From positions 1 through 14,701 of the forward strand of contig CAZJVP010000046.1 of the NCBI GenBank assembly GCA_964549615.1: DNA of 14,701 nt, in the 5' to 3' direction. This DNA comes from an uncultured Thermococci archaeon. Lineage in GTDB: Archaea; CAYQAE01; CAYVLA01. The notes beneath the pieces were generated by a model, which did not search any database, was not told the DNA's origin, and worked only from the letters and a program-made list of their open reading frames with translations. Position numbers and translations under genes: made by a program. Within the stretch, counting starts at the first letter, position 1. Each line of letters opens with the position of its first letter. Shown here piece by piece: positions 1 through 14,128 of the stretch.

Positions 1-690
<690 letters not shown>

Positions 691-759
691 TAGCGGTCCA
701 GCCCACCCTGCGGCGGAGCCAATTCCGCCGCCAAGAGGGGGCCGAAATCCGTGCAATGC

Positions 760-832
760 GGGCCGGTAGCTCAGGCGGTAGAGCACGGCCTTTGCGAGGC
801 TGAGGCCCCGGGTTCAAGTCCCGGCCGGTCCA
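760..832 (+). tRNA. tRNA-Ala(UGC), intronless, CCA not encoded
   Basis: Cloverleaf: acceptor GGGCCGG/CCGGTCC with the G3:U70 Ala determinant, anticodon stem CGGCC/GGCTG with TGC at 793-795, T arm CCGGG-TTCAAGT-CCCGG, discriminator A832. Confidence 0.98.
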
Positions 833-937
833 CTCCGGCCCGCGAGGAATGTGCAGCTCGGGAGGAAACAGGTCCTCGGACCTGGGCTCACGAGCCAAGA
901 TCTTATCCCCTCTTCCGTTCGAGGGTTCGGTAAGTCA

Positions 938-967
938 TAGGCCCAGTTCGGAGCAATCCGAAGAAGC
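938..967 (+). other. 5' strand of the pre-23S bulge-helix-bulge processing stem
   Basis: TAGGCCCAGTTCG-GAGC-AAT-CCGAAGAAGC pairs with 4029-4058: 13 bp, 3-nt bulge, 4-bp helix, 3-nt bulge, 10 bp. Confidence 0.93.
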
Positions 968-981
968 AAAACTAGTGAGTA

Positions 982-3900
982 GACGCCTTAGGCAATACGC
1001 CGTCTAGGGGATGACTTAGCTCGAGCGTCGACGAAGGGCGTGGCAAGCTGCGATAAGCCCCGGCGAGGCGCAAGCAGCCTTCGAACCGGGGATCCCCGAA
1101 TGAGACTTCTCGCGAGTCCTCTTTCGAGAGACCCGCACTCCGTGAGGAGGGAGAACCCCCTGAAGTGAAACATCTTAGTAAGGGGAGGAAGAGAAAGCAA
1201 TAGCGATGCCCTGAGTAACGGCGAGTGAAAAGGGTAGAGGGCAAACCGAACCCCTTCGGGGGAATGTGGTGTTTGGGCGATCCTCAAGGCTCATCTTGCT
1301 GAAGCTGAAGTTCGCTGGGACGCGACGCCGAAGAGGGTGAAAGCCCCGTAGGCGCAAGGCAGGATGGGTCGGGTCGTTCCAGAGTACCGCGCATCGGATA
1401 TTGCGTGGGAATATGGGAGGCATCAACTCCTAACCCTAAACACGTCTCGAGACTGATAGCGCAGTAGTATCGCGAGAGAAAGATGAAAAGAATCCCGCAA
1501 GGGAGGCGAAAAGAGCCTGAAACTAGACGGCAATAATTTGGCACGGCTCTCAAGAAATGATTCTGGCCGAAGGAGAGGCGCGCGAGCGCCGCGTACGAGG
1601 TCAGATGATCGGGGTTGTGCCGTCCGTTTTGTACCACGGGGCAGGGAGTTTGTGCTCGTGGCGAGGCTAAGAGGATAATCCTCGGAGCCGCAGGGAAACC
1701 GAATGTCCGCAGCCGCAAGGCGAGGGACGGGGTCTGAATAGGGCCCCCAGTCACGGGCACCAGACCCGAAACCGGTTGATCTAGCCCTGGGCAAGGTGAA
1801 GCCAGTCGTCAGATTGGTGGAGGCCTGAAGGGGTTCTGACGTGCAATTCGTTCCCATGACCTGGGGCTAGGCGCGAAAGGCGAATCAAAACCGGAGACAG
1901 CTGGTTCCCCCCGAAGTGTCCCGCAGGACAGCCTGGTGCGAGAGTGGCGGCGATGTAGAGACACTGTTCGGGAAGTCTGGGGAGGAAACTCCTCAGCACC
2001 CTTACAAACTCCGAAGTCGTCGTCCTCGTAGACCACCGGAGTTAGGGGCTGTGGGGTAAGCTTCAGTTCCGAAAGGGGACGAACCCGGACCGGGGTTAAA
2101 GCCTCCCAATGCCGGCTAAGTACAAACTGAAAGGCGTCCCTAGCCACAGACAGCGGGAAGGTAGGCTTAGAAGCTGCCATCCTTTAAAGAGTGGGTAACA
2201 CCTCACCCGTCGAGGTTGGGGGCCCTGAAAATGGACGAGGTTGAAGCCGGCTGCTGATACCCCGGAGCCGCGAAAGCGGTTGGTAGGGGGGCGTCCTGCG
2301 CGGGAAGAAGTTCGGTCGTGAGATCGAGTGGACCGCGTGGGAATGCAGATCCTGCTGGTAGTAGCAGCAAAGCGGGGTGAGAATCCCCGCCGCCGAAAGG
2401 GCAAGGGTTTCGTGGCAATGATCGTCAGCCACGAGTTAGTCGGTCCTAAGGGAAGCCTTAATACGGCCAGCCCGAAAGGGAAACCGGTTAATATTCCGGT
2501 ACCACGTGGGTACGTGCGGCAACGCTAAGCCCGGTGCCTGACGCCTCCGGATAGGCTGAGTGGGGCCGTCGCTCCATCCAATGGATCAAACCTGGGGAGT
2601 ACCGTAATGGTGAGAACCAGGCGAAGTCCTGAGTGGCTCCTCGCCCTTATAGAGGAGTTCGGCTGATTCCAGGGGCCCGTGAAAAGGGAACCGGGAAGGA
2701 TCCCACGTGACCGTACCAAGATCCGGCACAGGTGCCCCTAGGTGAGAAGCCTAAGGCGTGTCGGGAGACACCAGCCGAGGGAACTCGGCAAACTGGCCCC
2801 GTAACTTCGGGAAAAGGGGTGCCTGCCCCGCGAGGGACAGGTCGCAGTGACCAGTGCAGTCCGACTGTTTAATAAAAACACAGGTTCCGGCAAGCCCGAA
2901 AGGGTGTGTACCGGAGCTGAGTCGTTCCCACTGCCGGAATGTCAAGCGCGGTTCCAACCGCGTTAAGCACCGGTGAAGGGAGGGGATAACTATGATCCTC
3001 TAAAGGTAGCGTAATCCCTTGTCGCTCAATTGGCGACCCGCATGATAGATTAACGAGACTGCAGCTGTCCCCGGCTGGAACCCGGCGAACCACACGAATC
3101 CGGAAGAACACGCCGGATACCCCCAAAGGGTCACTAAGACCCCGTGGAGCTTTACTGCAGCTTTCTGCTGTGATGCGGATTTTGATGCAGAGCGTAGGTA
3201 GGAGCCGTCTGACGTCCGCGCTTTCGGGCGCGGTCTAGGCGATAATGGAACACTACTCTTCAGTATCTGCATCACTAACCCGGCCAAAAGCCGGGGACAC
3301 CAGGAGGTGGGCAGTTTGGGTGGGGCGCCACGCCCCTGAAAAGATATCAGGGGCGCCCAAAGGTCGGCTCAGGCGGGACAGAACTCCGCCGTGGAGTGCA
3401 AGGGCAAAAGCCGGCCTGACTGGATTCCGCCCAGCAAGGAATCCAGACGTGAAAACGTGGCCTAGCGATCTTCACTGCCTCATCGATGGGGGCGTGAAGT
3501 GTCAGAAAAGCTACCCCGGGGATAACTGGCTTGTCGCAGGCAAGAGTTCATATCGCCCCTGCTTGGTTGGTACTTCGCTGTCGGCTCTTCCTATCCCGGA
3601 CGTGCAGCAGCGTCCAAGGGTGGGGTTGTACGCCCATTAAAAGGGAACGTGAGCTGGGTTTAAACCGTCGCGAGCCAGGTTGGATGCTAACCGTTGGGGG
3701 TGCTGGTCGTCTGAGGGGAAGGTGCCCCCAGTACGAGAGGAACAGGGCGCCGGCGCCACTGGTGTACCGGTTGTCCGACAGGGCACTGCCGGGTAGCTAC
3801 GCGCCAGCAGATAAGAGCTGAAAGCATCTAGGCTCGAAGCTGCCCCCGAACAATAGACGGCCAATCGGGCCAATAGCTCGGGATCGGCGACGATCACGAG

Positions 3901-4015
3901 GGCCAAAGACGAAGGTTCTCGCCAGAAGACGAGGTTGATGGGGCAGGGGTGTACGCACCAAGGGCAACCGAGGTGTTCAGCCCACTGCTACCAATCACCT
4001 GAGCGCCGCCGCGTC
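982..4015 (+). rRNA. rrl: 23S rRNA, archaeal (ends approximate), no obvious intron
   Basis: GCAAGCTGCGATAAGC near the start, GAAGTGAAACATCTTAGTA, PTC GGGATAAC (~3519-3526), GTGAGCTGGGTTTA, sarcin-ricin loop AGTACGAGAGGAAC (3730-3743). Ends estimated from GACGC(982-986)/GCGTC(4011-4015) pairing. Confidence 0.98.
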
Positions 4016-5541: not shown

Positions 5542-5890
5542 GGCCGGGTCGGAGGAGTAAGCCCCCTTCTGTTCCCCGCGGAGGGTTGCCCCGCCGCGGC
5601 CTGCGGCATTGAACTGCGCGCCGTACCCAGGCCTCATCCGGCGCTCATCGGCCTCGTTTCGGCTTGCTCCTGCGAAGGTTCGCCGTTCCATCGAATCCGC
5701 CGACGTCGTCCGGGGCGTTTCCCTGGTCGCCCTGGGATCTATCCCCATCATGCCCACCTGCCGGCGGCCGTGTCGTTTCTGTTCCAGAGCTCGGGATCTC
5801 TCCCGGTGGCTTTCCTCCACTCGCATCTCCGGACGGAGGGGGGACTTTCCTCGGTGCACATGCCCGATGGCCGCTCTCTCCCTCCCGGCC
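5542..5890 (-). ncRNA. rnpB: RNase P RNA (archaeal, type A-like, ~349 nt)
   Basis: Minus strand shows CR-I GAGGAAAGUCCCCC, CR-II ACAGAAAC, CR-III UGGAAC, GGAGCAAG, CR-IV-like AGUUCAAUG and CR-V GAACAGAAGGGGGCUUA; P1 ends GGCCGGG/CCCGGCC; P2 GCGGC/GCCGC. Confidence 0.94.
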
Positions 5891-5914: not shown

Positions 5915-7273
5915 TTATCTGTTGCGTTTCCTGCGTTTGGAAACCGCCTTCGAGGGGCGTGCTTGAAGCTTCCCCACACACGCCCTGACGTGAGCCGGCA
6001 GGCCCTCGGCGGTTCCGAGCAGCGAGACGATCTCGCAAACGCCTCTGAGTGCCTTCGGATCCAGGGCCCCGATCGTGCTGGCTTTGAGGAAGTCCCTGGC
6101 CGTCAAGCCTGAGAACGCCCTCGCCGATCCCCCCGTAGGAAGGACGGCGGTCAGGCCCATGGCGTAGTTGGCGGCGGAAAAAGGTGTCGACTGGCCCAAT
6201 AGGATCTCGCCCGCGTTTCTGATCATGCCGAGCATCCTCATGCTTTCTCGCCTGCCGAGCGCGATCTGCAGGTGCTCTGGGGCGTAGGAGTTGACGAACT
6301 CGGCCGCCTCGGACTTGGACGATACAAGCACGATCATACCACGCGCGGAAAGGGCCTCCTCCACGTATCCCTTCCTGGGCTCGTCCAACTCCTGAGCAAG
6401 GCGAGCGATCTCGGCCGAAACCTGTGCGGCAAGCCCGGGGGAGTCGGTGACCAGGACGGCCGACGAGTCGGGTCCGTGTTCACACTCGTTCAGAAGGTCC
6501 GCCGCAACCTGGCCCGGGTCGGACGACTCGTCCGCAATCACCATGCACTCGCTGGGACCCATGAGCGGGCCCGTCCTCACGCCGTAGATGCCCACGTACC
6601 CCATGGCAGCGTTGATCGCCGGGGGCCCCGGACCGTAGATAGCATCGACCCGCGGTACCGACTCGGTTCCAAACGCCATAGCGGCGATGAGCGCAACCCC
6701 ATTCCCCCTGAACACGCGCGAAACGCCCGAGATTGCAGCTGCTGCGAGGGTCGCCGGGTCCATGCTTCCGTCCTTCCTCGGAGGCCCGGCAGCCACGATC
6801 TCCTCAACGCCCGCAACCGATGCGGGAACCGCGAGCATCAGCATCGTCGAGGCGAGAGGGCCTTTCCGACACGGAACCCACAGCCCCGCCGAGGAAAGGG
6901 GAGTCCACTTCTCGCCCACCTCTATCCAGGGATCCAACGCGTCCATCCACTGGGAGCGCCCCCGGATCAGCCTCCTGTTCAGCTTGGCAATCCTGCCCCT
7001 CGCCTTTCGCATGGCCCAGGCCAGACGGGCAGGAAGGCCGGCCTTGGCCGATTCGATCTCGGATGCCTCAACTTCCAAGGAGGAAAGCTCCACCGAGTCC
7101 CACTTCGCCGTGGCGTCGTACACGGCGCGATCCCCCCTCTTCCGCACGTCCTCGACGATCTGAGCGACGGACTGTATGAGCTCGGGAGTCACCTGGGAGG
7201 ATCGGCTGGCCATCCTCGTCGCTATTTCCTCTCGGTCGCGCCTGTGATCAAGGATCTTGACTAGGTCCTTCAC
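5915..7273 (-). CDS. Histidinol dehydrogenase-like protein (non-canonical HisD paralog)
   Basis: HisD fold motifs VRKRGDRA, GPSE, DLLxxxEHG, APEHL, VLPTGG and AEGLPAH, but several substrate/Zn ligands are substituted; GTG start. Confidence 0.88.
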   Translation of the reverse strand: MKDLVKILDHRRDREEIATRMASRSSQVTPELIQSVAQIVEDVRKRGDRAVYDATAKWDSVELSSLEVEASEIESAKAGLPARLAWAMRKARGRIAKLNRRLIRGRSQWMDALDPWIEVGEKWTPLSSAGLWVPCRKGPLASTMLMLAVPASVAGVEEIVAAGPPRKDGSMDPATLAAAAISGVSRVFRGNGVALIAAMAFGTESVPRVDAIYGPGPPAINAAMGYVGIYGVRTGPLMGPSECMVIADESSDPGQVAADLLNECEHGPDSSAVLVTDSPGLAAQVSAEIARLAQELDEPRKGYVEEALSARGMIVLVSSKSEAAEFVNSYAPEHLQIALGRRESMRMLGMIRNAGEILLGQSTPFSAANYAMGLTAVLPTGGSARAFSGLTARDFLKASTIGALDPKALRGVCEIVSLLGTAEGLPAHVRACVGKLQARPSKAVSKRRKRNR

Positions 7274-7316: not shown

Positions 7317-8279
7317 TCAGGCCCACCACATTGCCCCTGCCTTCTCTGCTATGACCGCTTCCTTGAGGGCGGTGAAGGCCTTCCTGAAGCCCTCCTCGGC
7401 CGACATCAGGCTGTCCTCGTGTTCGATGCTCAGGACGTAGTCGTAGCCGACGAGCCTCAGCTCGCTCACGAACCTCCTCCACCAGTCAACGGGGTGCCCG
7501 TAGCCAACGGTCCTGAATATCCATGAGCGGTCGATCTCCCGGCCGTAGGGCTTGGTGTCAAGGACCCCGTTGACCTCGGTATTGACGGGATCGATTGCGG
7601 TGTCTTTGGCGTGGACGTGGAATATCGCCTTCCCAAGGGCCCTGACCGCCCGCAGGGGATCTATGCCCTGCCAGAAGAGGTGCGACGGGTCAAGGTTGGC
7701 GCCGACCACCCTGCCGACCTCCTTCCTCAGACGCAGGAGGGTTTCGGTGTTGTAGACCACGAAGCCTGGATGCATCTCGAAGCAGAGCTTGACGCCGTGC
7801 GCCTCCGCGAAGTCGGCCGCCTTCTTCCAGTAGGGGATGACCTTCTCCTTCCACTGCCACTCCACGATCTTGGAGAAGTCGTCCGGCCAGGGGCAGGTAA
7901 CCCAGTTGGGGTACTTCGAGCCCTCGGGGTCGCCCGGGCACCCGGAGAAGCCGATCACGCGGTCCACGCCGAGCTTCTCGGCCAGCAACACGGTGTCCTC
8001 GAACACCGCGTGATGCGCCTTCGCAATCGCATCCTGTGGGTGGAGGGGATTGCCGTGGCAGCTCAGCGCGCTGATGATCATGCCTCTGTCCTTGACCGCC
8101 TTCAGCAAAGCTTGAGCCGCCGAATCGTTTGCCAGGAGCTTCTTCGGATCGCAGTGCGCGTTTCCGGGATAGTTGCCGGTTCCGAGCTCCACCGCCTCAG
8201 CACCGACATTCCTGATGTAGTCCAGCGCCTTCTCCAACGGCATTTGTTGGAAAAGGACGGTCAGAACGCCTATCTTCAA
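7317..8279 (-). CDS. Sugar phosphate isomerase/epimerase family (xylose-isomerase-like TIM barrel, AP_endonuc_2), 320 aa
   Basis: Metal-binding motifs EMHP, NLDPSH, HVHAKD and SIEHED; SCHGNPLHP, FSGCPG and C-terminal MWWA. Start moved to TTG 8279, which is preceded by SD GGAGGAG. Confidence 0.9.
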   Translation of the reverse strand: MKIGVLTVLFQQMPLEKALDYIRNVGAEAVELGTGNYPGNAHCDPKKLLANDSAAQALLKAVKDRGMIISALSCHGNPLHPQDAIAKAHHAVFEDTVLLAEKLGVDRVIGFSGCPGDPEGSKYPNWVTCPWPDDFSKIVEWQWKEKVIPYWKKAADFAEAHGVKLCFEMHPGFVVYNTETLLRLRKEVGRVVGANLDPSHLFWQGIDPLRAVRALGKAIFHVHAKDTAIDPVNTEVNGVLDTKPYGREIDRSWIFRTVGYGHPVDWWRRFVSELRLVGYDYVLSIEHEDSLMSAEEGFRKAFTALKEAVIAEKAGAMWWA

Positions 8280-8326
8280 GCCATCTCCTCCCCGCTTCTC
8301 GAGCGTCAGGGCGATCCCCCGCGCCC

Positions 8327-8445
8327 GCAATATATCTTTTTTGTTTTGGTTTTGATTCAAGATCCGGGTTGCAGGCTCCGCCTTGAATCCTCCCGAGGGC
8401 AAAACGTGCCCAGTCGAATCCCAAACGGGCAAAGATATCAACGGG
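8327..8445. promoter_or_regulatory. Divergent promoter region between the epimerase and dehydrogenase genes
   Basis: AT-rich island CAATATATCTTTTTTGTTTTGGTTTTG and AAAGATATCAA within GC-rich DNA, between head-to-head genes. Confidence 0.5.
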
Positions 8446-8463
8446 GCGGTCGGACCGAATCCG

Positions 8464-9459
8464 ATGTTGGCGGCGTTCTCAGGCGGAGGGAAGATCTCAC
8501 TTCGAGAAACCCCGCTTCCAGTTCCCGGGCAAGGGGAGGCCCTGATCGCAGTGAGAGCGGTGGGCATCTGCGAGACCGATGTGCACATCACGCTCAGAGA
8601 TCCGGCCGCGCAGCCGAGGATCATGGGGCATGAGTGGTCAGGAGTCGTCGAGGAGGCGCCCAGCGTTCAGGGGGTCAGGCGTGGATCCCGGGTGGTCGGC
8701 GAGGGGATGGTCTACTGTGGAGCCTGCCGCATGTGCCTCAAGGGAAAGGTCAACCTGTGCGATTCCTACAGAGAGATCGGATTCAGCCTGCCGGGAGCCT
8801 ATGCCGAGTACTTGACGGTGCCGGCGCGCAACCTTCATGAGATTCCGCCAAGCATGACCTTCGAGCAGGCGGCAATGGTCGAACCCACCGCGGTGGCGCT
8901 CCATGCCCTACAGCTGTCCGGCATTTGTGCGCACGATAGCCTGGCCGTCCTTGGCCCGGGCCCGATAGGGCTGTTGGCGATCCAGATCGCCTCCGCCAAG
9001 GGTGCAGCCCCCATCGTGCTTACCGGCACGAGGGAGAACCGGCTTTCTCTGGGATCCAAGCTCGGGGCAGACAAGACCATCAACGTGACCCAAACCGATC
9101 CCGTGCAGGGCGTGAGGCGCGAGACCGGGGGAGGCCCGGACATAGTCCTAGATGCCGCAGGGACCCGATCGTCATTCGATCAAGCGGTGAGAATGGTGAG
9201 GAAGGGCGGCACGGTCGTCCTGGTCGGCGGATGGGAGGGGGTTGAGTTCGAGCCAGGGGTGCTCATCGCGAAGGAAATGACCCTGAAGGGATCGCTGGCA
9301 AGCCCTAGGGCATGGAGGGAGTCGATAGAGCTCGTTTCATCGGGGAGGGTGAAGGTTGAGCCGCTCATAACCCACAGGTTCAGGCTCACCGAGATCGCCC
9401 AAGCCTTCGACGTCGTCCAACGAAAGCAGGACGTCATCAAGGCCATCGTGCTGCCCTAG
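8464..9459 (+). CDS. Zn-dependent medium-chain dehydrogenase (sorbitol/threonine dehydrogenase-like), ~331 aa
   Basis: GICETD, GHE, structural Zn motif CGACRMC-x7-C, VEP and Rossmann GPGPIG. Start placed at ATG 8464. Confidence 0.92.
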   Translation: MLAAFSGGGKISLRETPLPVPGQGEALIAVRAVGICETDVHITLRDPAAQPRIMGHEWSGVVEEAPSVQGVRRGSRVVGEGMVYCGACRMCLKGKVNLCDSYREIGFSLPGAYAEYLTVPARNLHEIPPSMTFEQAAMVEPTAVALHALQLSGICAHDSLAVLGPGPIGLLAIQIASAKGAAPIVLTGTRENRLSLGSKLGADKTINVTQTDPVQGVRRETGGGPDIVLDAAGTRSSFDQAVRMVRKGGTVVLVGGWEGVEFEPGVLIAKEMTLKGSLASPRAWRESIELVSSGRVKVEPLITHRFRLTEIAQAFDVVQRKQDVIKAIVLP

Positions 9460-9896
9460 AGGACCCGTATCCTGTGCCTGCGGATAAGCCGCGGAAGCCT
9501 GACCGTCAAGATCCCCCTCCTGAAGTCCGCTTTTGCCTGCTCCGGGTCGACCTCGGCGGGAAGGGGGATGACTTTGCGGTAGCACTCGAAGTCGGCCTCC
9601 CTTTGCACGGTTCCCCACCTCCTGAAACAGATCGGCCGACTCATCTTGGCCCTGATCTCAACGGAGTTCTCCGTGCAATGGACCTCCAGGTCGTTCTTGT
9701 CGCGGACGCAGGGTAGGTCTACGGTCACCACTATCTCGTTCTCCAGCTCGAGCACCTCGTGAAGGGGCTCCAGGGTCTTCTCGGCCAGGTCCCAGGTCGG
9801 ACCGAACCCCTCCCTGAGCATCTGCATGAGGCGCTTCTCCAGCCTTGCCATGCGCCTTTCGATGAGCTCGAACGGATCCTCGTCCACGGAGACCAC
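9456..9896 (-). CDS. hsp20: Small heat-shock protein (Hsp20/alpha-crystallin)
   Basis: EPLHEV...VTVDLP, IPLPAEVDPEQAKADFRRGILTVRLP and C-terminal IxI-type IRV; GTG start abuts the upstream TAG. Confidence 0.93.
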   Translation of the reverse strand: MVSVDEDPFELIERRMARLEKRLMQMLREGFGPTWDLAEKTLEPLHEVLELENEIVVTVDLPCVRDKNDLEVHCTENSVEIRAKMSRPICFRRWGTVQREADFECYRKVIPLPAEVDPEQAKADFRRGILTVRLPRLIRRHRIRVL

Positions 9897-10637
9897 CTAG
9901 ACGTACATCGAGGGGAGTTCGTATTCGCGTTCCTTGCCCGAGTCCCGCATGACCTTCTCGGTGCTCCTCATCAGATCCCTCAGCTTCACCCTGATCTCCT
10001 CCGCCTTCTCCATGAGAGGCTGCACGTCGATCCTTCTGCCCAAGACGGTCGAGGCCGCCTTGAGAGCCTCAGCCGCAGCGCCGGGGTCAGGATATTGAAG
10101 ATGGGACTGGGCGAGCAGAGTGAGATTGGGGGCGCCCGTCCTCCTGCAAGCCTCCAAGATGGCCGCATAGGGACCGACCAGCATCGCCTCCTGCAGCCGG
10201 TCCACGCCCATCTTGGCGAGAAGATCGTCCTTGACGTTGACCGAAATGCCGTAGACGCGCGGAACGTCGATGTCAACCCTGTTGGGCACTGGGGCCCCGG
10301 AGAGGCTGATCGATAGGGAGCTGCCCATCGCCCCCATCCAGCCAACAAGGTCCCTAACCACGTCGCGTATGGAGGAAAGCTGGATTGCAATCTCGGATAT
10401 GACGACCACCAGATCGCCCTTGGAGTACGCCCTCATCGGCGACTTGGGTGCGCCGTCGTGAAGGACCACTATCGGCGGGAATGCGTCCGAGTCGAACGAG
10501 ACCGCCTCCTCCATCGAGAGCGATTCGATCAGATGGGATGCGGAGATGAGGCCGACCAGCCCGGCATCGGGTATGCCGACGATCACCTTCGCGTTCTTGG
10601 GAAGCTTCCCGGTCTCCTGGATCTCAAGTCTGGCCAA
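9897..10637 (-). CDS. PAC2-family proteasome assembly chaperone/activator (PbaA/PbaB-like), ~246 aa
   Basis: VGIPDAGLVGLIS, YPDPGAAA, IDVQPLMEKAEEI and C-terminal HbYX motif MYV. Start moved to TTG 10637. Confidence 0.9.
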   Translation of the reverse strand: MARLEIQETGKLPKNAKVIVGIPDAGLVGLISASHLIESLSMEEAVSFDSDAFPPIVVLHDGAPKSPMRAYSKGDLVVVISEIAIQLSSIRDVVRDLVGWMGAMGSSLSISLSGAPVPNRVDIDVPRVYGISVNVKDDLLAKMGVDRLQEAMLVGPYAAILEACRRTGAPNLTLLAQSHLQYPDPGAAAEALKAASTVLGRRIDVQPLMEKAEEIRVKLRDLMRSTEKVMRDSGKEREYELPSMYV

Positions 10638-10729
10638 GCTGGCACCAGATTTAGCTATCCGCGAAACCCTGAAATAGCTATCGCAGGCCGGCTGGAGAGG
10701 GCCCAAACATGACCACCGGCGGGAGCCGC

Positions 10730-11287
10730 CTAGGACTGCCCGCCCTCGACCTTCTCCTCGTATGCAGACTCGACTATCAGCCTCGCCTTCTCGGTTTCAC
10801 CGAGCCTGATGAGCAGCTCCACGTACTCCCTTTCGGCGGGCGTAAGGAGGTGCTGGGCGCGGTCCTTCTTCTTGGCCTCGTACTGCTGCTGCACGAATTC
10901 CTTGGCCCTCTCCGTCTCTCCCATCGATATCAGGAGCTGGACGTACTCCCTGTCAAGATCCGTCAGGAGCCTCTCCTCGGATTCCGCCCTCGCCTTGTAG
11001 GCCGCCTCCACCATCTGGAGGGCGCGCTCGTTCTCCCCCCGCTCGATCAGGCTCTCCACGTGCTCGCGGTCCTTGGGCGAGAGGAGGGCTGTGTCGGATC
11101 GGGACCTGCGCTTGTATGCCTGCTCCACCAGCCTGAGCACTTTCTCCTTTTCCCCAAGCTTGACCATGAGCTCTGCGTATTCGGCCTCGATCGGGTCCAG
11201 GAGTTTGGTGAGGGGCCTTTCCTCGTCCTTCTCGGACTTCTCCAGCTCGTGCCGCTTTCTTCCCAGGAGCGCCAAGTCGGTGCCCAA
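10730..11287 (-). CDS. Hypothetical helical protein with four ~39-aa internal repeats
   Basis: Clear protein-level repeats with degenerate DNA, coding-like composition, TTG start preceded by GAGG and by TTTTTAA ~25 bp upstream. Confidence 0.85.
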   Translation of the reverse strand: MGTDLALLGRKRHELEKSEKDEERPLTKLLDPIEAEYAELMVKLGEKEKVLRLVEQAYKRRSRSDTALLSPKDREHVESLIERGENERALQMVEAAYKARAESEERLLTDLDREYVQLLISMGETERAKEFVQQQYEAKKKDRAQHLLTPAEREYVELLIRLGETEKARLIVESAYEEKVEGGQS

Positions 11288-11306
11288 CCTCTCGTGCGGT
11301 GCAGGC

Positions 11307-11316
11307 TCTTAAAAAC
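11307..11316 (-). promoter_or_regulatory. Putative TATA box of the repeat-protein gene
   Basis: Minus strand GTTTTTAAGA about 20-30 bp upstream of start 11287. Confidence 0.5.
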
Positions 11317-11550
11317 ATGCGCGGCGGGCGGTCAGGAGATTTCGATGGCTGATGAAGGCGATTCCTACCACATGTCGAGACGTCCAAGAGCGCGTCGTTG
11401 CGCTCCTAGGAATCATTGTAGCGAAAAACCCCGCACCTTCCCGACGTTGTCGATCCAAGCGAGGGTGGTCTGGGTTTGGAGCGGCCAATGCAGGGCGCAA
11501 CCGGGAGGCAGGGATGCCTGCTTCTGGGCAGATTTCATGCGGCGGGCGCG

Positions 11551-12276
11551 CTACGTGAGCCTTCCGCCCGGCATGATCTCTATCCCGCTCTTGGTGATCT
11601 CGTAGGGAACGCGGGCCAGGGAATGGTTGGTCTCCCTCATCTTCCTGATGAGCAAGGTCCGCCGCAGCCGCCCTCCTTCCTCCTCAAGGGAGAGCGTGAT
11701 GACGCCGCGGGTCAGGTACTCCTCGAAGCCATAGGTGCCGAGGTACCCCTGCATGGGCTTCTCGGTCGTCATGAGGGCGGTGACACCCATCTCAAGGAGC
11801 AGGTTTGAGAGCTTGAACAGGTTGCGCCTGAGCTCCCCCCTACTCTCGTATCTTAAGCCAAGGGCCGGGATCGAGTCTATGGCGACCCGGGAGGCGCCTA
11901 TCTCCTTGCCTATCTGGTAGACCGTGGTTATCAGGGCCTCCACGCTCATGTCCCTAGGCCCAACGTAGTGCTCCCGGCTGGGCGCGCCCGATCTCGTGGA
12001 TGTCACATCAACGATGGCGAGCTTGCCAGCCGCCTCCACGGGAGCAAGATCCCATCCGAACTGTAGGCACTCCCGCCTCAGGTCTTGGGGACGCTCCTCG
12101 AAGGTCACCATTATCCCCGGCTCGTCCCACTTGGCAGCCCCCGCGTAGAGGTACTGCATGCAGAAGATGGTCTTGCCGGTGCCGGAGTCGCCCGAGAGGA
12201 GTATGGTGGCCCCCCTGGGGAACCCTCCTCCCAGGAGATCGTCCAGAGACGGTATGCCGGTCTTGACTCTATCCAT
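11551..12276 (-). CDS. Single-domain KaiC/RAD55-like (RecA-superfamily) ATPase, ~241 aa
   Basis: RVKTGIPSLDDLLGGG, Walker A GDSGTGKT, FEE, Walker B VAIDS, EEYLTRGVI and RKMR. Start moved to ATG 12276. Confidence 0.93.
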   Translation of the reverse strand: MDRVKTGIPSLDDLLGGGFPRGATILLSGDSGTGKTIFCMQYLYAGAAKWDEPGIMVTFEERPQDLRRECLQFGWDLAPVEAAGKLAIVDVTSTRSGAPSREHYVGPRDMSVEALITTVYQIGKEIGASRVAIDSIPALGLRYESRGELRRNLFKLSNLLLEMGVTALMTTEKPMQGYLGTYGFEEYLTRGVITLSLEEEGGRLRRTLLIRKMRETNHSLARVPYEITKSGIEIMPGGRLT

Positions 12277-12438: not shown

Positions 12439-13398
12439 TTATTGCTCCCACCGGAATGGTTCCTCGGTGACAAGCCCCCTTCCCGTGATCTGGAAGAGAA
12501 CCCAGTGCTTGGCGTGGTCGCCGAGCCTGGTCTTGTAGACGCGGAACTTGCGCCTCAACTCGTCGTCCCGATCCAGCCTGAACTCGTAGATATCGTTTGC
12601 CAAGAAGCGCATGGTCTCCCTGTATTCGGGCGGGTGGATGTCCTCGAGCACGTAGACCCCGGTCGTGTGGTTGATCTTAAGCCTCGCCGAAAGCTTCTCG
12701 CAGAAGTAGACCACCTCTTCAAGCGGATTGTGCAGGAGCAGCTCGGACACCGAGTCCAGAAAGAAGACGCACTCGGACGGGTCCCCCTTTCGGACCGCGC
12801 TGTCTATAACCGCCAATAGCTTGGCGAGGTCCGTGATGCTCTCGGTCGTGAAGTCCTCGCTGCTCTTGTAGGTCTCGCCCAGGCGCCACGAGTACAGATC
12901 GACCACGGAAAGCTTGGCTGCGGTATGGCCGTCCTCGATCAGCGCGATCTTCTCGCGCAGCTCGTCCGGGGTCTCGTTGGTGCAGAGGTAGACGGCGTTC
13001 AGGCCATCCTTGAGGGCTTTCGCGGACACCTGGACGCAGAAGCTGGTCTTACCCGCACCGACATCGCCCTCGACGAGCACGGTGTCCCCCCGGGTCATGC
13101 CCCCCCGCGTCATGGCGTCGACGAACCCTATGCCGGTGGGAACCTTCCTCCTCTTGGTTTCCAAGGCGCGCAGAAGCTCATCCCGGGTGGGAACCCGGGT
13201 GAACCTCAGCGACTCATCGACTATGATGGTCGGAACCTGGGTCACGCGGAACTTCCGCGCGATCCTCCTATCCCTATCCACGTCGAATATCTGTAGGCTT
13301 ATCCTGCCAGGATTCTCCCTCTTGATCTCCTCCAGGAGGGCCTGTGCGTCGTCGCAGTAGGCGGCGACGTCGGCCCGGAAGAGGTATACCTTCGTCAT
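12439..13398 (-). CDS. Thioredoxin-fold domain fused to a KaiC-like ATPase, 319 aa
   Basis: aa ~1-80: VYLF-x-AAYC (degenerate CxxC), FDVDRD, cis-Pro loop VPTIIV. aa ~85-319: VPTGI, Walker A GDVGAGKT, Walker B FFLDS, YKTR. Confidence 0.88.
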   Translation of the reverse strand: MTKVYLFRADVAAYCDDAQALLEEIKRENPGRISLQIFDVDRDRRIARKFRVTQVPTIIVDESLRFTRVPTRDELLRALETKRRKVPTGIGFVDAMTRGGMTRGDTVLVEGDVGAGKTSFCVQVSAKALKDGLNAVYLCTNETPDELREKIALIEDGHTAAKLSVVDLYSWRLGETYKSSEDFTTESITDLAKLLAVIDSAVRKGDPSECVFFLDSVSELLLHNPLEEVVYFCEKLSARLKINHTTGVYVLEDIHPPEYRETMRFLANDIYEFRLDRDDELRRKFRVYKTRLGDHAKHWVLFQITGRGLVTEEPFRWEQ

Positions 13399-13408
13399 CC
13401 CGTCCCCG

Positions 13409-14128
13409 CTACACGATCTGCAGCTCTATGCCGTTGTTCGTGATCTGGTAGGGATACCGGTTCACGGCGTGCCTCGTCCCTCGCATCTTCAGTATCATGA
13501 GGTTCTTGGTCATCTTGGTGCCAGTCTCGGCGTACGTCATCACGATCACGCCGCTTGCCACGAACTCCTCCACGCCGAAGCGGCTGACGCCCTTCGTGAA
13601 ATCCGTGGTCTCGCTCACCAGCACCACGTTGCAGCCGAGCTCAAGCAGGAGGTTGTTTATCTCGTGGATCGCGTTCCTTATCTCACCCACGTCTGCGAAG
13701 TGGAAGGTGAGGGCGGGCAGGGAGTCTATGACCACCCTCTTGATGTCGTTCTTGCTGATGATCTCGTAGAGCTTGTTGGCAAAGGTCTCAACCTTGAACT
13801 CGGTCTGGATCGAATACTTCTCCTTGCTGGGCATCCTGGCCCTGGGGTTGGCCACGTCGAGCACGAAAAGGGACCCTTCCTTCTCAAGCTTGGCGAGGTC
13901 CCAGCCGAAGCGGGTCATCTCGCGCCGCACATCGCAGGGCCGTTCCTCCAACGCGACGTACAGGCCTCTTTCGCCCTTGTTGGCGCCGTGGACCAGGTAC
14001 TGCAGGCAGAAGATCGTCTTCCCAGTTCCGGAGGGGCCCGTCACCAGTATGCTGGAGTTTGCAGGAAACCCTCCCTCGATTAGGCCGTCGAGCCTTGGTA
14101 TCCCCGTTTCAATCCTTTCTATCTCCAT
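13409..14128 (-). CDS. Single-domain KaiC/RAD55-like ATPase, 239 aa
   Basis: RIETGIPRLDGLIEGG, Walker A GPSGTGKT, LEE, VVIDS, GVEEFVASGVI and LKMRG. Confidence 0.95.
   Translation of the reverse strand: MEIERIETGIPRLDGLIEGGFPANSSILVTGPSGTGKTIFCLQYLVHGANKGERGLYVALEERPCDVRREMTRFGWDLAKLEKEGSLFVLDVANPRARMPSKEKYSIQTEFKVETFANKLYEIISKNDIKRVVIDSLPALTFHFADVGEIRNAIHEINNLLLELGCNVVLVSETTDFTKGVSRFGVEEFVASGVIVMTYAETGTKMTKNLMILKMRGTRHAVNRYPYQITNNGIELQIV

Follow-up and report, generated by a model that had tools for sequence, protein, structure and literature searches.

The binding of thioredoxin folds to ATPases of the KaiC family is an established theme. According to the accessible part of one study (10.1101/2020.06.17.158394), fold-switched KaiB and the thioredoxin-like domain of SasA dock on the B-loop of the CI domain of KaiC, the key residues of which are F122 and D123; further precedents for this pairing are the PDB entries 5jwr and 5jwo and, as far as its accessible text goes, PMC4858521. 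Outside cyanobacteria, KaiB accompanies only 'full-length' KaiC, again according to the accessible part of the source (PMC5520375). Single-domain KaiC-like ATPases are numerous in archaea and have been proposed to act as signalling hubs, and fusions of REC domains to KaiC are of narrow phyletic range (accessible part of PMC5847659, citing Makarova et al. 2017 for the signalling hubs). A contig of an uncultured Thermococci archaeon (CAZJVP010000046.1, 14,701 nucleotides, analysed at its full length and called the window in the following) encodes a protein in which both elements are joined, namely a thioredoxin-fold domain fused in cis to a KaiC-like ATPase. An earlier note on this DNA, made from the letters alone, had interpreted the protein as a fused KaiB-KaiC-like module with a built-in KaiB-like or monothiol redox-sensing subunit. 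A fused thioredoxin-KaiC form was not described in the accessible parts of the open-access literature searched.

The fusion gene is one open reading frame (ORF) on the minus strand (12439..13398), which starts with ATG and encodes 319 amino acids. The ORF coincides exactly with the coordinates given before. It is a real, conserved gene, the entire architecture being kept in relatives. The source genome comprises 3.2 Mb in 104 contigs and is 99.5% complete; the 14.7-kb window is one entire contig. The reading proposed here, for which confidence and doubt are evenly balanced, is that a KaiC-like signalling ATPase acquired a redox-dead thioredoxin fold, which serves it as a built-in module for interaction or regulation. 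The best-supported account of the architecture itself is that it represents the fused form of a pairing of thioredoxin-family and KaiC-like proteins already noted in archaea. The fusion gene contains the following features:

13147..13398, minus strand: thioredoxin-fold N-terminal domain, residues 1-84, of the MJ0307/Thioredoxin_3 type with a degenerate active site
13354..13365, minus strand: A12-A13-Y14-C15, remnant of the CxxC motif with the second Cys only, from the alignment with stand-alone thioredoxins
13228..13236, minus strand: V55-P56-T57, corresponding to the cis-proline loop of thioredoxins, from alignments
12439..13146, minus strand: KaiC-like (RecA-superfamily) ATPase domain, residues 85-319 and stop codon, from Pfam, PDB and Foldseek matches
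13045..13068, minus strand: Walker A motif G111-D-V-G-A-G-K117-T118, from alignment conservation
12973..12978, minus strand: N141-E142 at the position of the catalytic EE pair of KaiC, from alignments
12754..12756, minus strand: Walker B aspartate D215 (F-F-L-D-S), from alignment conservation

The N-terminal domain has a minimal thioredoxin fold and is by sequence of the MJ0307/Thioredoxin_3 type, not KaiB. The Pfam family Thioredoxin_3 (cut-off 24.8 bits) matches the isolated domain (residues 1-85) with 28.2 bits, reaches 27.3 bits in the genome scan and 24.4 bits within the entire protein (residues 13-78). The NCBIfam model TIGR00411, which describes the MJ0307 family of thioredoxins, matches residues 3-80 with an E-value of 1.7e-11, its score of 44 lying far under the equivalog cut-off of 92.75. 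A single-sequence search of the PDB with HMMER returned the thioredoxins 1fo5 (E 1.2e-7) and 1nho (E 1.5e-6), and the domain shares 24-29% identity with four stand-alone archaeal thioredoxins. In AlphaFold2, the domain adopts a beta-alpha-beta-alpha-beta-beta-alpha topology at residues 2-83; the full-length model has a predicted local distance difference test (pLDDT) value of 93.5 and a predicted template modelling score (pTM) of 0.88, and a model of the N-terminal domain only, based on an alignment of 9 rows, has a pLDDT of 87.5.

Structural comparisons lead to the same family. The best PDB matches found by Foldseek are thioredoxins, with template modelling (TM) scores (query) of 0.81-0.88 and root-mean-square deviations (rmsd) of 1.3-2.0 Å. 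When the top 999 chains of Foldseek were rescored, thioredoxins obtained Z-scores of 12.6-15.3; the fold-switch-stabilised KaiB bound to KaiC CI (5jwr_D) was found at rank 30 with a Z-score of 13.0 (rmsd 1.9 Å over 81 residues), and a second fold-switched KaiB chain (5jwo_B) at rank 42 with 12.8. A Foldseek-independent search of 48,161 representatives again placed thioredoxins at the top (Z 14.7), with the KaiB of Legionella at rank 32 (Z 11.3) and the N-terminal domain of SasA at rank 41 (Z 11.0). Since ordinary thioredoxins score equally well or better, the likeness to KaiB and SasA is one of fold only. The KaiB hidden Markov model (HMM) PF07689, which has a cut-off of 27 bits, gives 14 bits for the isolated domain (E 0.044) and 13 bits in the genome scan. 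Thus, the thioredoxin fold at the N-terminus, for which the earlier note had proposed a Foldseek comparison of residues 1-80, was found by topology and by the structure search; the kinship to KaiB was not supported, and what stands of the 'fused KaiB-KaiC-like module' is a thioredoxin fold in cis with a KaiC-like ATPase.

The active site of the domain is degenerate. The AAYC motif (residues 12-15) aligns column by column with CPHC or CPYC of the four stand-alone archaeal thioredoxins, which stem from other genomes; the retained C15 therefore represents the second Cys of the pair and the first position is occupied by Ala, so that a CxxC active site is absent. V55-P56 is invariant in 9/9 rows of the N-domain alignment, true thioredoxins included, and VPT is invariant in all 13 fusion rows. 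AAYC, and also the wider motif A-[DE]-V-A-A-Y-C-D, is unchanged in 12/12 rows of the close family, and the latter is conserved enough to have been chosen automatically as the pattern of a locus search. A distant fusion protein, P0020, carries D-V-A-S at this position and has no Cys there. The single active-site Cys and the VPT loop had been noticed from the sequence before, and both are seen in the alignments. Three stand-alone Thioredoxin_3 proteins above the cut-off are encoded elsewhere in the genome. On contig C20 of the source genome (~259900-261300; L005, L021), a thioredoxin-like domain with C-D-E-C forms the N-terminal part of a 371-aa frame, the remainder of which resembles a membrane protein, and a separate 105-aa Thioredoxin_3 gene adjoins this frame.

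The two domains are joined tightly. The last thioredoxin helix (72-83) ends at residue 83 and the Pfam KaiC match begins at residue 86, with the stretch K82-R83-R84-K85 at the join. The short basic linker described in the earlier note is indeed basic, but almost no separate linker is left between helix and KaiC match, and judging from the model residues 82-85 are hardly a linker at all. The pTM of 0.88 for the full chain hints at a defined arrangement of the domains. A complex prediction with residues 85-319 and residues 1-84 as separate partners gave scores of 0.00 and 0.00 against a mark of 0.32, and its controls were not folded, so that it speaks neither for nor against docking.

The C-terminal part is a divergent, single-domain KaiC-like ATPase. 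The KaiC family PF06745 (cut-off 26.6 bits) matches residues 86-310 with 74 bits (E 1.5e-20), and DUF7504 (PF24336, cut-off 27 bits), which is common to many non-fused and differently fused members of the clade, matches residues 104-262 with 37 bits. Among PDB sequences, KaiC, SSO2452 and PH0284 were matched at E 1.9e-15 to 5e-13. Structurally, the single-domain archaeal proteins PH0284 and SSO2452 are nearest, followed by KaiC CI; the Foldseek match to 2dr3_F has an E-value of 2.6e-18 and a TM score (target) of 0.86, and KaiC CI chains reach about 0.8 (target). The scores for the circadian KaiC equivalogs remain far below their cut-offs (54.9 vs 408 for NF006799, 23.7 vs 546.25 for TIGR02655), and the protein has one ATPase domain, not two in tandem (~500 aa).

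As described in the earlier note, the Walker motifs are intact and NE replaces the EE pair. In an alignment of 61 rows, G111, G114, G116 and K117 of Walker A and D215 of Walker B each reach a conservation of 90% or more; the four Walker A residues do not vary among the 13 fusion rows, nor does D215 in the 6 rows of an alignment with K1 and K3, the two canonical KaiC-like ATPases encoded on either side of the fusion gene. N141-E142 faces EE of K1 and K3 in this alignment and EE of the solved KaiC structure 8zn5_B in a HMMER alignment, and the catalytic EE pair is thus absent from the fusion. E142 is invariant in 13/13 fusion rows, whereas residue 141 varies (N in 11 rows, T in P0010, D in P0020); related members of the clade have DE, DC, DK or ND at these two positions. 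The FGWD motif has been lost in the close family through a deletion of 4 residues, and the K289/R291/H295 motif is retained. A further motif, D-x-Y-S-W-R-x-G-E, is present in the fusion ATPase and also in non-fused members of the DUF7504-scoring clade; this segment, together with the invariant D190 that follows it, was aligned by HMMER with the B-loop-bearing part of KaiC (D167-L191 of the fusion), the correspondence of individual residues being approximate.

The cis fusion of the thioredoxin-fold domain to the ATPase is genuine by Pfam, NCBIfam, AlphaFold2 and Foldseek, and it is rare. Twelve database relatives of 315-349 aa match both domains at 67-90% identity. An exhaustive HMMER pass over 1.84 billion cluster representatives yielded 2012 matches. 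At E-values of at most 1e-30, only the cluster of the protein itself and P0020 remained; the latter has 329 aa, is 28% identical and contains both domains. The count of fusions rests on the best 150 of these 2012 matches, among which a thioredoxin-fold module at the N-terminus of a KaiC-like ATPase is present only in the close family and in P0020. Five species genomes of the phylum were searched, and the fusion was found in 4/4 genomes of one family (f1) and not found in the single genome of a second one (f2, 0/1). In one of the f1 genomes, the fusion gene is cut by two contig ends, with residues 107-110 present on both pieces. The uninterrupted frame is also found in related loci of two collections (L024, L025, L028, L029 and L030). 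A word-based search with the N-terminal domain gave 11 matches, all from the own family, and a search with P0020 gave 74 matches, in which the combination of Thioredoxin_3 and KaiC occurs in P0020 alone. An Atlas search with the full protein found only non-fused KaiC-like clusters (score 0.86), and one with residues 1-85 found small thioredoxin/glutaredoxin clusters (score 0.82-0.83); both serve as leads only. As far as these searches go, the range of the fusion is narrow and consists of one archaeal family and one singleton; fusions of greater distance may exist among the remaining matches of the HMMER pass. Three records differ from the remaining ones: P0012, encoded on a contig of 1.2 kb, is identical to P0006 over the first ~220 residues but not beyond, as if by a frameshift; P0021 (81 aa) covers the N-terminal domain only and is either a fragment or a stand-alone gene; and in P0028, a stretch of ~85 residues is repeated exactly within the protein, which looks like an assembly artefact.

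P0020 comes from another deep archaeal lineage, a phylum that is represented by one genome in the searched set. Its gene is located between an ABC-ATPase gene and an aminotransferase-like gene and lacks neighbours of the K1, K3 or Lrp type. Its N-terminal domain shares 36-41% identity with stand-alone thioredoxins vs 26-33% with the N-terminal domain of the close family. In a tree of the ATPase domain (107 rows, quick method), full support was obtained for the family clade, which has a long stem (1.18), and most of the backbone is unresolved, with 54 of the 104 inner branches open; P0020 is placed outside the family clade in the free quick tree. Constraining all 8 fusion rows to one clade improved the log-likelihood by 74.5 over the free quick search, and the approximately unbiased test gave a p-value of 0.968. 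A single origin of the fusion would thus be compatible with the constrained test and is not rejected; a firm claim is not made because both fusion groups are on long branches. The ratios of nonsynonymous to synonymous substitutions (dN/dS) according to Nei-Gojobori range from 0.02 to 0.26 for the thioredoxin part (14 computable of 15 pairs), from 0.05 to 0.22 for the ATPase part (15 pairs) and from 0.06 to 0.16 for K1; these values are rough, as synonymous sites are near saturation. Judged from these sequence comparisons, both domains of the fusion are under purifying selection, and the thioredoxin domain is constrained rather than decaying.

The fusion gene is flanked by genes of the same ATPase family and by a regulator gene:

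13409..14128, minus strand: K1, canonical single-domain KaiC-like ATPase of 239 aa, Pfam KaiC 233.7 bits
11551..12336, minus strand: K3, canonical single-domain KaiC-like ATPase of 261 aa, Pfam KaiC 250.5 bits
14246..14701, plus strand: divergent Lrp/AsnC-type regulator that runs off the contig end, with Pfam HTH_24 and HTH_AsnC-type matches and a C-terminal AsnC-type domain

K1 is located directly upstream of the fusion gene, separated by a gap of 10 nucleotides (13399-13408) that measures 9-11 nucleotides in L028, L029 and L024. Owing to this short gap, K1 and the fusion gene are probably co-transcribed. The sequencing runs listed as containing the stretch or a part of it are two DNA runs (0.95 and 0.07 of the sampled words), with no RNA run among them. 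K3 follows downstream after a spacer of 102 nucleotides, which includes a T/A-rich stretch; none of the related loci that extend to this point lacks it. Lrp, K1, fusion and K3 follow one another in this order in 4/4 related loci with both flanks (L024, L028, L029 and L030), and 4/4 partial loci are consistent with it; the Lrp/AsnC regulator occupies the same place in L028, L029, L030, L024 and L026. Across these loci, the fusion protein shows identities of 71-90%, K1 of 83-93% and K3 of 80-88%, which makes the fusion the least conserved of the three. Genome-wide, 12 matches to PF06745 were obtained. No protein of the source genome passes the KaiB cut-off, and the N-terminal domain of the fusion is its sole match to the KaiB HMM at E <= 1.

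On the other side of K3, the genes for a PAC2-family protein (9897..10706, minus strand) and Hsp20 (9456..9896, minus strand) are found, both of which follow the KaiC-like cluster in four related loci as well. A role in proteostasis derived from these two genes was rejected, as the synteny is seen in close relatives only and is uninformative. The interval between PAC2 and K3 (10709-11550) holds only ORFs with no family match, e.g., 10709..11605 (plus strand), which has an unlikely composition; related loci have two small genes at this interval (239 and 183 aa in L024). Further away, a zinc alcohol dehydrogenase gene (8383..9459, plus strand) has a listed TTG start that overlaps the preceding gene, which encodes a xylose-isomerase-like TIM-barrel protein (7317..8624, minus strand), by ~240 nucleotides, and the true start is probably located later. 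An archaeal RNase P RNA (5546-5886, minus strand; Rfam RF00373, 174.5 bits, full length) is located just 3' of the histidinol dehydrogenase gene (5915..7273, minus strand). Positions 1-4014 (plus strand) are occupied by a ribosomal RNA (rRNA) operon, which consists of the 3' part of the 16S rRNA (1-689, cut at the contig end), a transfer RNA gene, tRNA-Ala(TGC) (760-832), and the complete 23S rRNA (983-4014); the ORFs listed within this region are not genes, and no match to 5S rRNA was reported beside the operon.

Separate genes for thioredoxin-family and KaiC-family proteins stand side by side in other archaea. In an unrelated archaeal genome (L042, 1049-3151, plus strand), a PadR-like gene is followed by a gene for a thioredoxin/glutaredoxin-like protein of 99 aa, which overlaps by 8 nucleotides with a gene for an ATPase of 478 aa consisting of a KaiC domain and a GvpD basic region. 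The 99-aa protein contains C-I-I-C and reaches 23.6 bits with the KaiB HMM, which is under the cut-off; a BLASTP comparison with the N-terminal domain of the fusion revealed no similarity. KaiB above the cut-off was detected in 2/41 genomes searched (L032 and L033, both from one other archaeal genus; 72.9-76.6 bits), each time adjoining KaiC, which is a two-domain frame of 477 aa in L032, while the KaiC-like match in L033 consists of two adjoining frames of 280 and 200 aa. Of 12 loci with thioredoxin/KaiB-like matches retrieved from 40 other archaeal genomes, 9 lacked a KaiC-like ORF over a distance of ~1.5 kb, and no thioredoxin-like ORF was found beside the KaiC-like matches of loci L010-L016.

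Under the interpretation of the N-terminal domain as a redox-dead interaction or regulatory module, the fusion gene would belong to the archaeal single-domain KaiC-like signalling ATPases as a paralogue specific to its lineage. A small thioredoxin of the MJ0307 type would have become permanently attached to its N-terminus, with a subsequent loss of the redox chemistry (CxxC to AxxC). With Walker A and B, E142 and K289/R291/H295 retained, the ATPase part would form a ring-type oligomer, in which it most likely still binds ATP and probably also hydrolyses it. The thioredoxin-fold part would most likely form an interaction or regulatory module on the N-terminal face of the ring, where the surface made of the old active site and the cis-Pro loop would hold a partner or gate the protein's own ATPase. 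Its role would correspond to that of KaiB and the N-terminal domain of SasA on KaiC CI by function, not by descent, and the same role is proposed for the separate thioredoxin-family genes beside archaeal KaiC-like genes. The fusion protein probably works with K1 and K3, and the divergent Lrp/AsnC regulator would control this set of proteins.

Several points weigh against this interpretation. The members of the close family are at least 70% identical overall, so that invariance within the family is weak evidence, and the synteny within one family may reflect shared ancestry only. A contact of the thioredoxin domain with the ATPase ring or a partner is a prediction, for which the pTM of the full chain is a hint only. 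The invariance of Cys15 and its flanks in all 12 close relatives is also compatible with a thiol-based role. As the first catalytic Glu is replaced by N and FGWD is lost, the ATPase domain may be slow or may only bind nucleotides. The P0020 singleton lies on one contig where K1, K3 and Lrp are missing, and a partnership with K1 and K3 is hence not general to the fusion. Judged by sequence comparison, L042 is an analogy, not an orthologue. Finally, the fusion may do nothing beyond what a separate thioredoxin-family partner would do.

Among the other explanations, a thiol-based redox sensor survives best, but is regarded as unlikely. It would imply that Cys15, which lies at the start of the first thioredoxin helix, is oxidised or enters a mixed disulfide, be it with a partner or with another Cys in the ATPase domain, and thereby switches the ATPase according to the redox state. 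Cys15 and its neighbours are invariant in the 12 close rows though the remaining N-terminal domain drops to 58-64% identity, the cis-Pro loop that shapes the substrate groove of thioredoxins is retained, and there are thioredoxin-fold peroxiredoxins that act with the second-position Cys alone (TxxC motif), all of which would fit such a sensor. However, thioredoxins and monothiol glutaredoxins attack their substrates with the first Cys of the pair, and exactly this position is Ala here. In addition, the architecture of P0020 is fully intact, yet the motif Cys is missing, and three stand-alone Thioredoxin_3 proteins are already present in the genome. The monothiol redox sensing suggested in the earlier note is therefore not favoured, as it is the second Cys of CxxC that was retained, and the lone distant fusion has DVAS instead.

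The possibility that the fusion is a degenerate pseudo-enzyme comes next and is similarly doubtful, if slightly more so. Here, both halves would be devoid of chemistry; the protein would contribute only structure or stoichiometry to the rings of K1/K3, and its N-terminal domain would neither sense nor regulate. The N in place of the first catalytic Glu, the deletion of FGWD in the close family, the long stem of the ATPase domain (1.18) and the lower conservation of the fusion compared to K1 or K3 across the same loci would agree with this, as would the KaiC HMM score of 74 bits vs 234 for K1 and 250 for K3. In contrast, Walker A, Walker B, E142 and K289/R291/H295 are all retained, the purifying selection on both domains is similar to that on K1, and within the N-terminal domain, conservation is highest at what remains of the active-site loop.

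A bolder version of the preferred interpretation is considered rather improbable. It states that a single-domain KaiC-like protein recruited the thioredoxin fold a second time, independently of KaiB, and that the MJ0307-type domains cap the ATPase hexamer as a ring, where KaiB and SasA bind KaiC CI; together with K1 and K3, the protein would then constitute a minimal single-chain 'KaiBC-like' switch or hourglass of a deep-branching archaeal lineage.

It is very unlikely that the fusion contains a true KaiB homologue, i.e., that it is a single-chain timer of the KaiBC type whose N-terminal domain is of KaiB descent and switches its fold to bind the ring. The superposition on fold-switched KaiB bound to KaiC CI (5jwr_D and 5jwo_B) is good, and with 13 bits the domain is the only KaiB HMM match of the genome at E <= 1. 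However, thioredoxins superpose better (Z up to 15.3 and 14.7), the KaiB HMM stays at 14 bits, below its cut-off of 27, as opposed to 28.2 bits with Thioredoxin_3 and an E-value of 1.7e-11 with TIGR00411, and the single ATPase domain scores 54.9 vs 408 on the circadian KaiC equivalog. Bona fide KaiB in 2/41 genomes adjoins a two-domain KaiC frame (L032) or a two-frame match (L033), and outside cyanobacteria KaiB occurs with full-length KaiC only, according to the accessible part of PMC5520375. Lastly, a joining of adjacent thioredoxin and KaiC-like genes by frameshift, assembly error or a missed stop, for which the split arrangement of L042 and the N-domain-only record P0021 could be cited and which the earlier note had named as a way in which its claim might fail, is virtually impossible and is excluded as far as sequence data allow, since the same uninterrupted frame is shared by 12 relatives, by loci from two collections and by a 28%-identical protein, since the gene that is cut in one genome is merely divided between two overlapping contig ends, and since the tight join between helix 72-83 and the KaiC match from residue 86 leaves no room for a stop and a restart.

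With one archaeal family and one singleton, the range of the fusion is narrow, which limits its significance. Nevertheless, it provides evidence of the Rosetta-stone type and suggests that the thioredoxin-family genes beside archaeal KaiC-like genes encode physical partners of the ATPases. With 319 aa and a fixed 1:1 ratio of both domains, the protein would be a compact target for structures of a KaiC-type ring under the control of a thioredoxin fold outside cyanobacteria. If the N-terminal domain indeed stems from thioredoxin and arose independently of KaiB, the solution found by KaiB and SasA would have evolved in parallel.

The fusion protein can be compared with five known systems. It shares with KaiB and the N-terminal domain of SasA on KaiC CI a thioredoxin fold of ~85-90 aa that has no redox chemistry and is paired with an ATPase domain of the KaiC family; in contrast to these, both parts are located on one polypeptide, there is a single ATPase domain instead of CI and CII, and the N-terminal domain lies under the KaiB cut-off and is nearer to thioredoxins of the MJ0307 type. 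The latter (1fo5, 1nho) resemble the domain in length, in their fold of four strands and three helices and in a recognisable sequence kinship; the domain of the fusion differs by its AAYC motif, by a score under the equivalog cut-off and by its attachment to an ATPase. PH0284 (2dr3), PH0186 (2zts) and SSO2452 (2w0m) are the best structural matches of the ATPase part and have the Walker motifs in common with it, but the fusion has in addition the thioredoxin-fold N-terminal domain, N141, the deletion of FGWD and the D-x-Y-S-W-R-x-G-E motif. The split pair of L042 shows the same order as the domains of the fusion, a thioredoxin-family followed by a KaiC-family protein, and a helix-turn-helix regulator is adjacent in both cases; there, however, the genes are separate and the thioredoxin-like protein has kept its CxxC. 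Finally, REC-KaiC and TPR-KaiC proteins belong to the same ATPase clade and likewise carry an accessory domain at the N-terminus. As a REC domain is found in P0161 and TPR with a zinc ribbon in P0115 and P0147, N-terminal accessory modules are usual in this clade; the accessory module of the fusion described here differs from these in being a thioredoxin fold.

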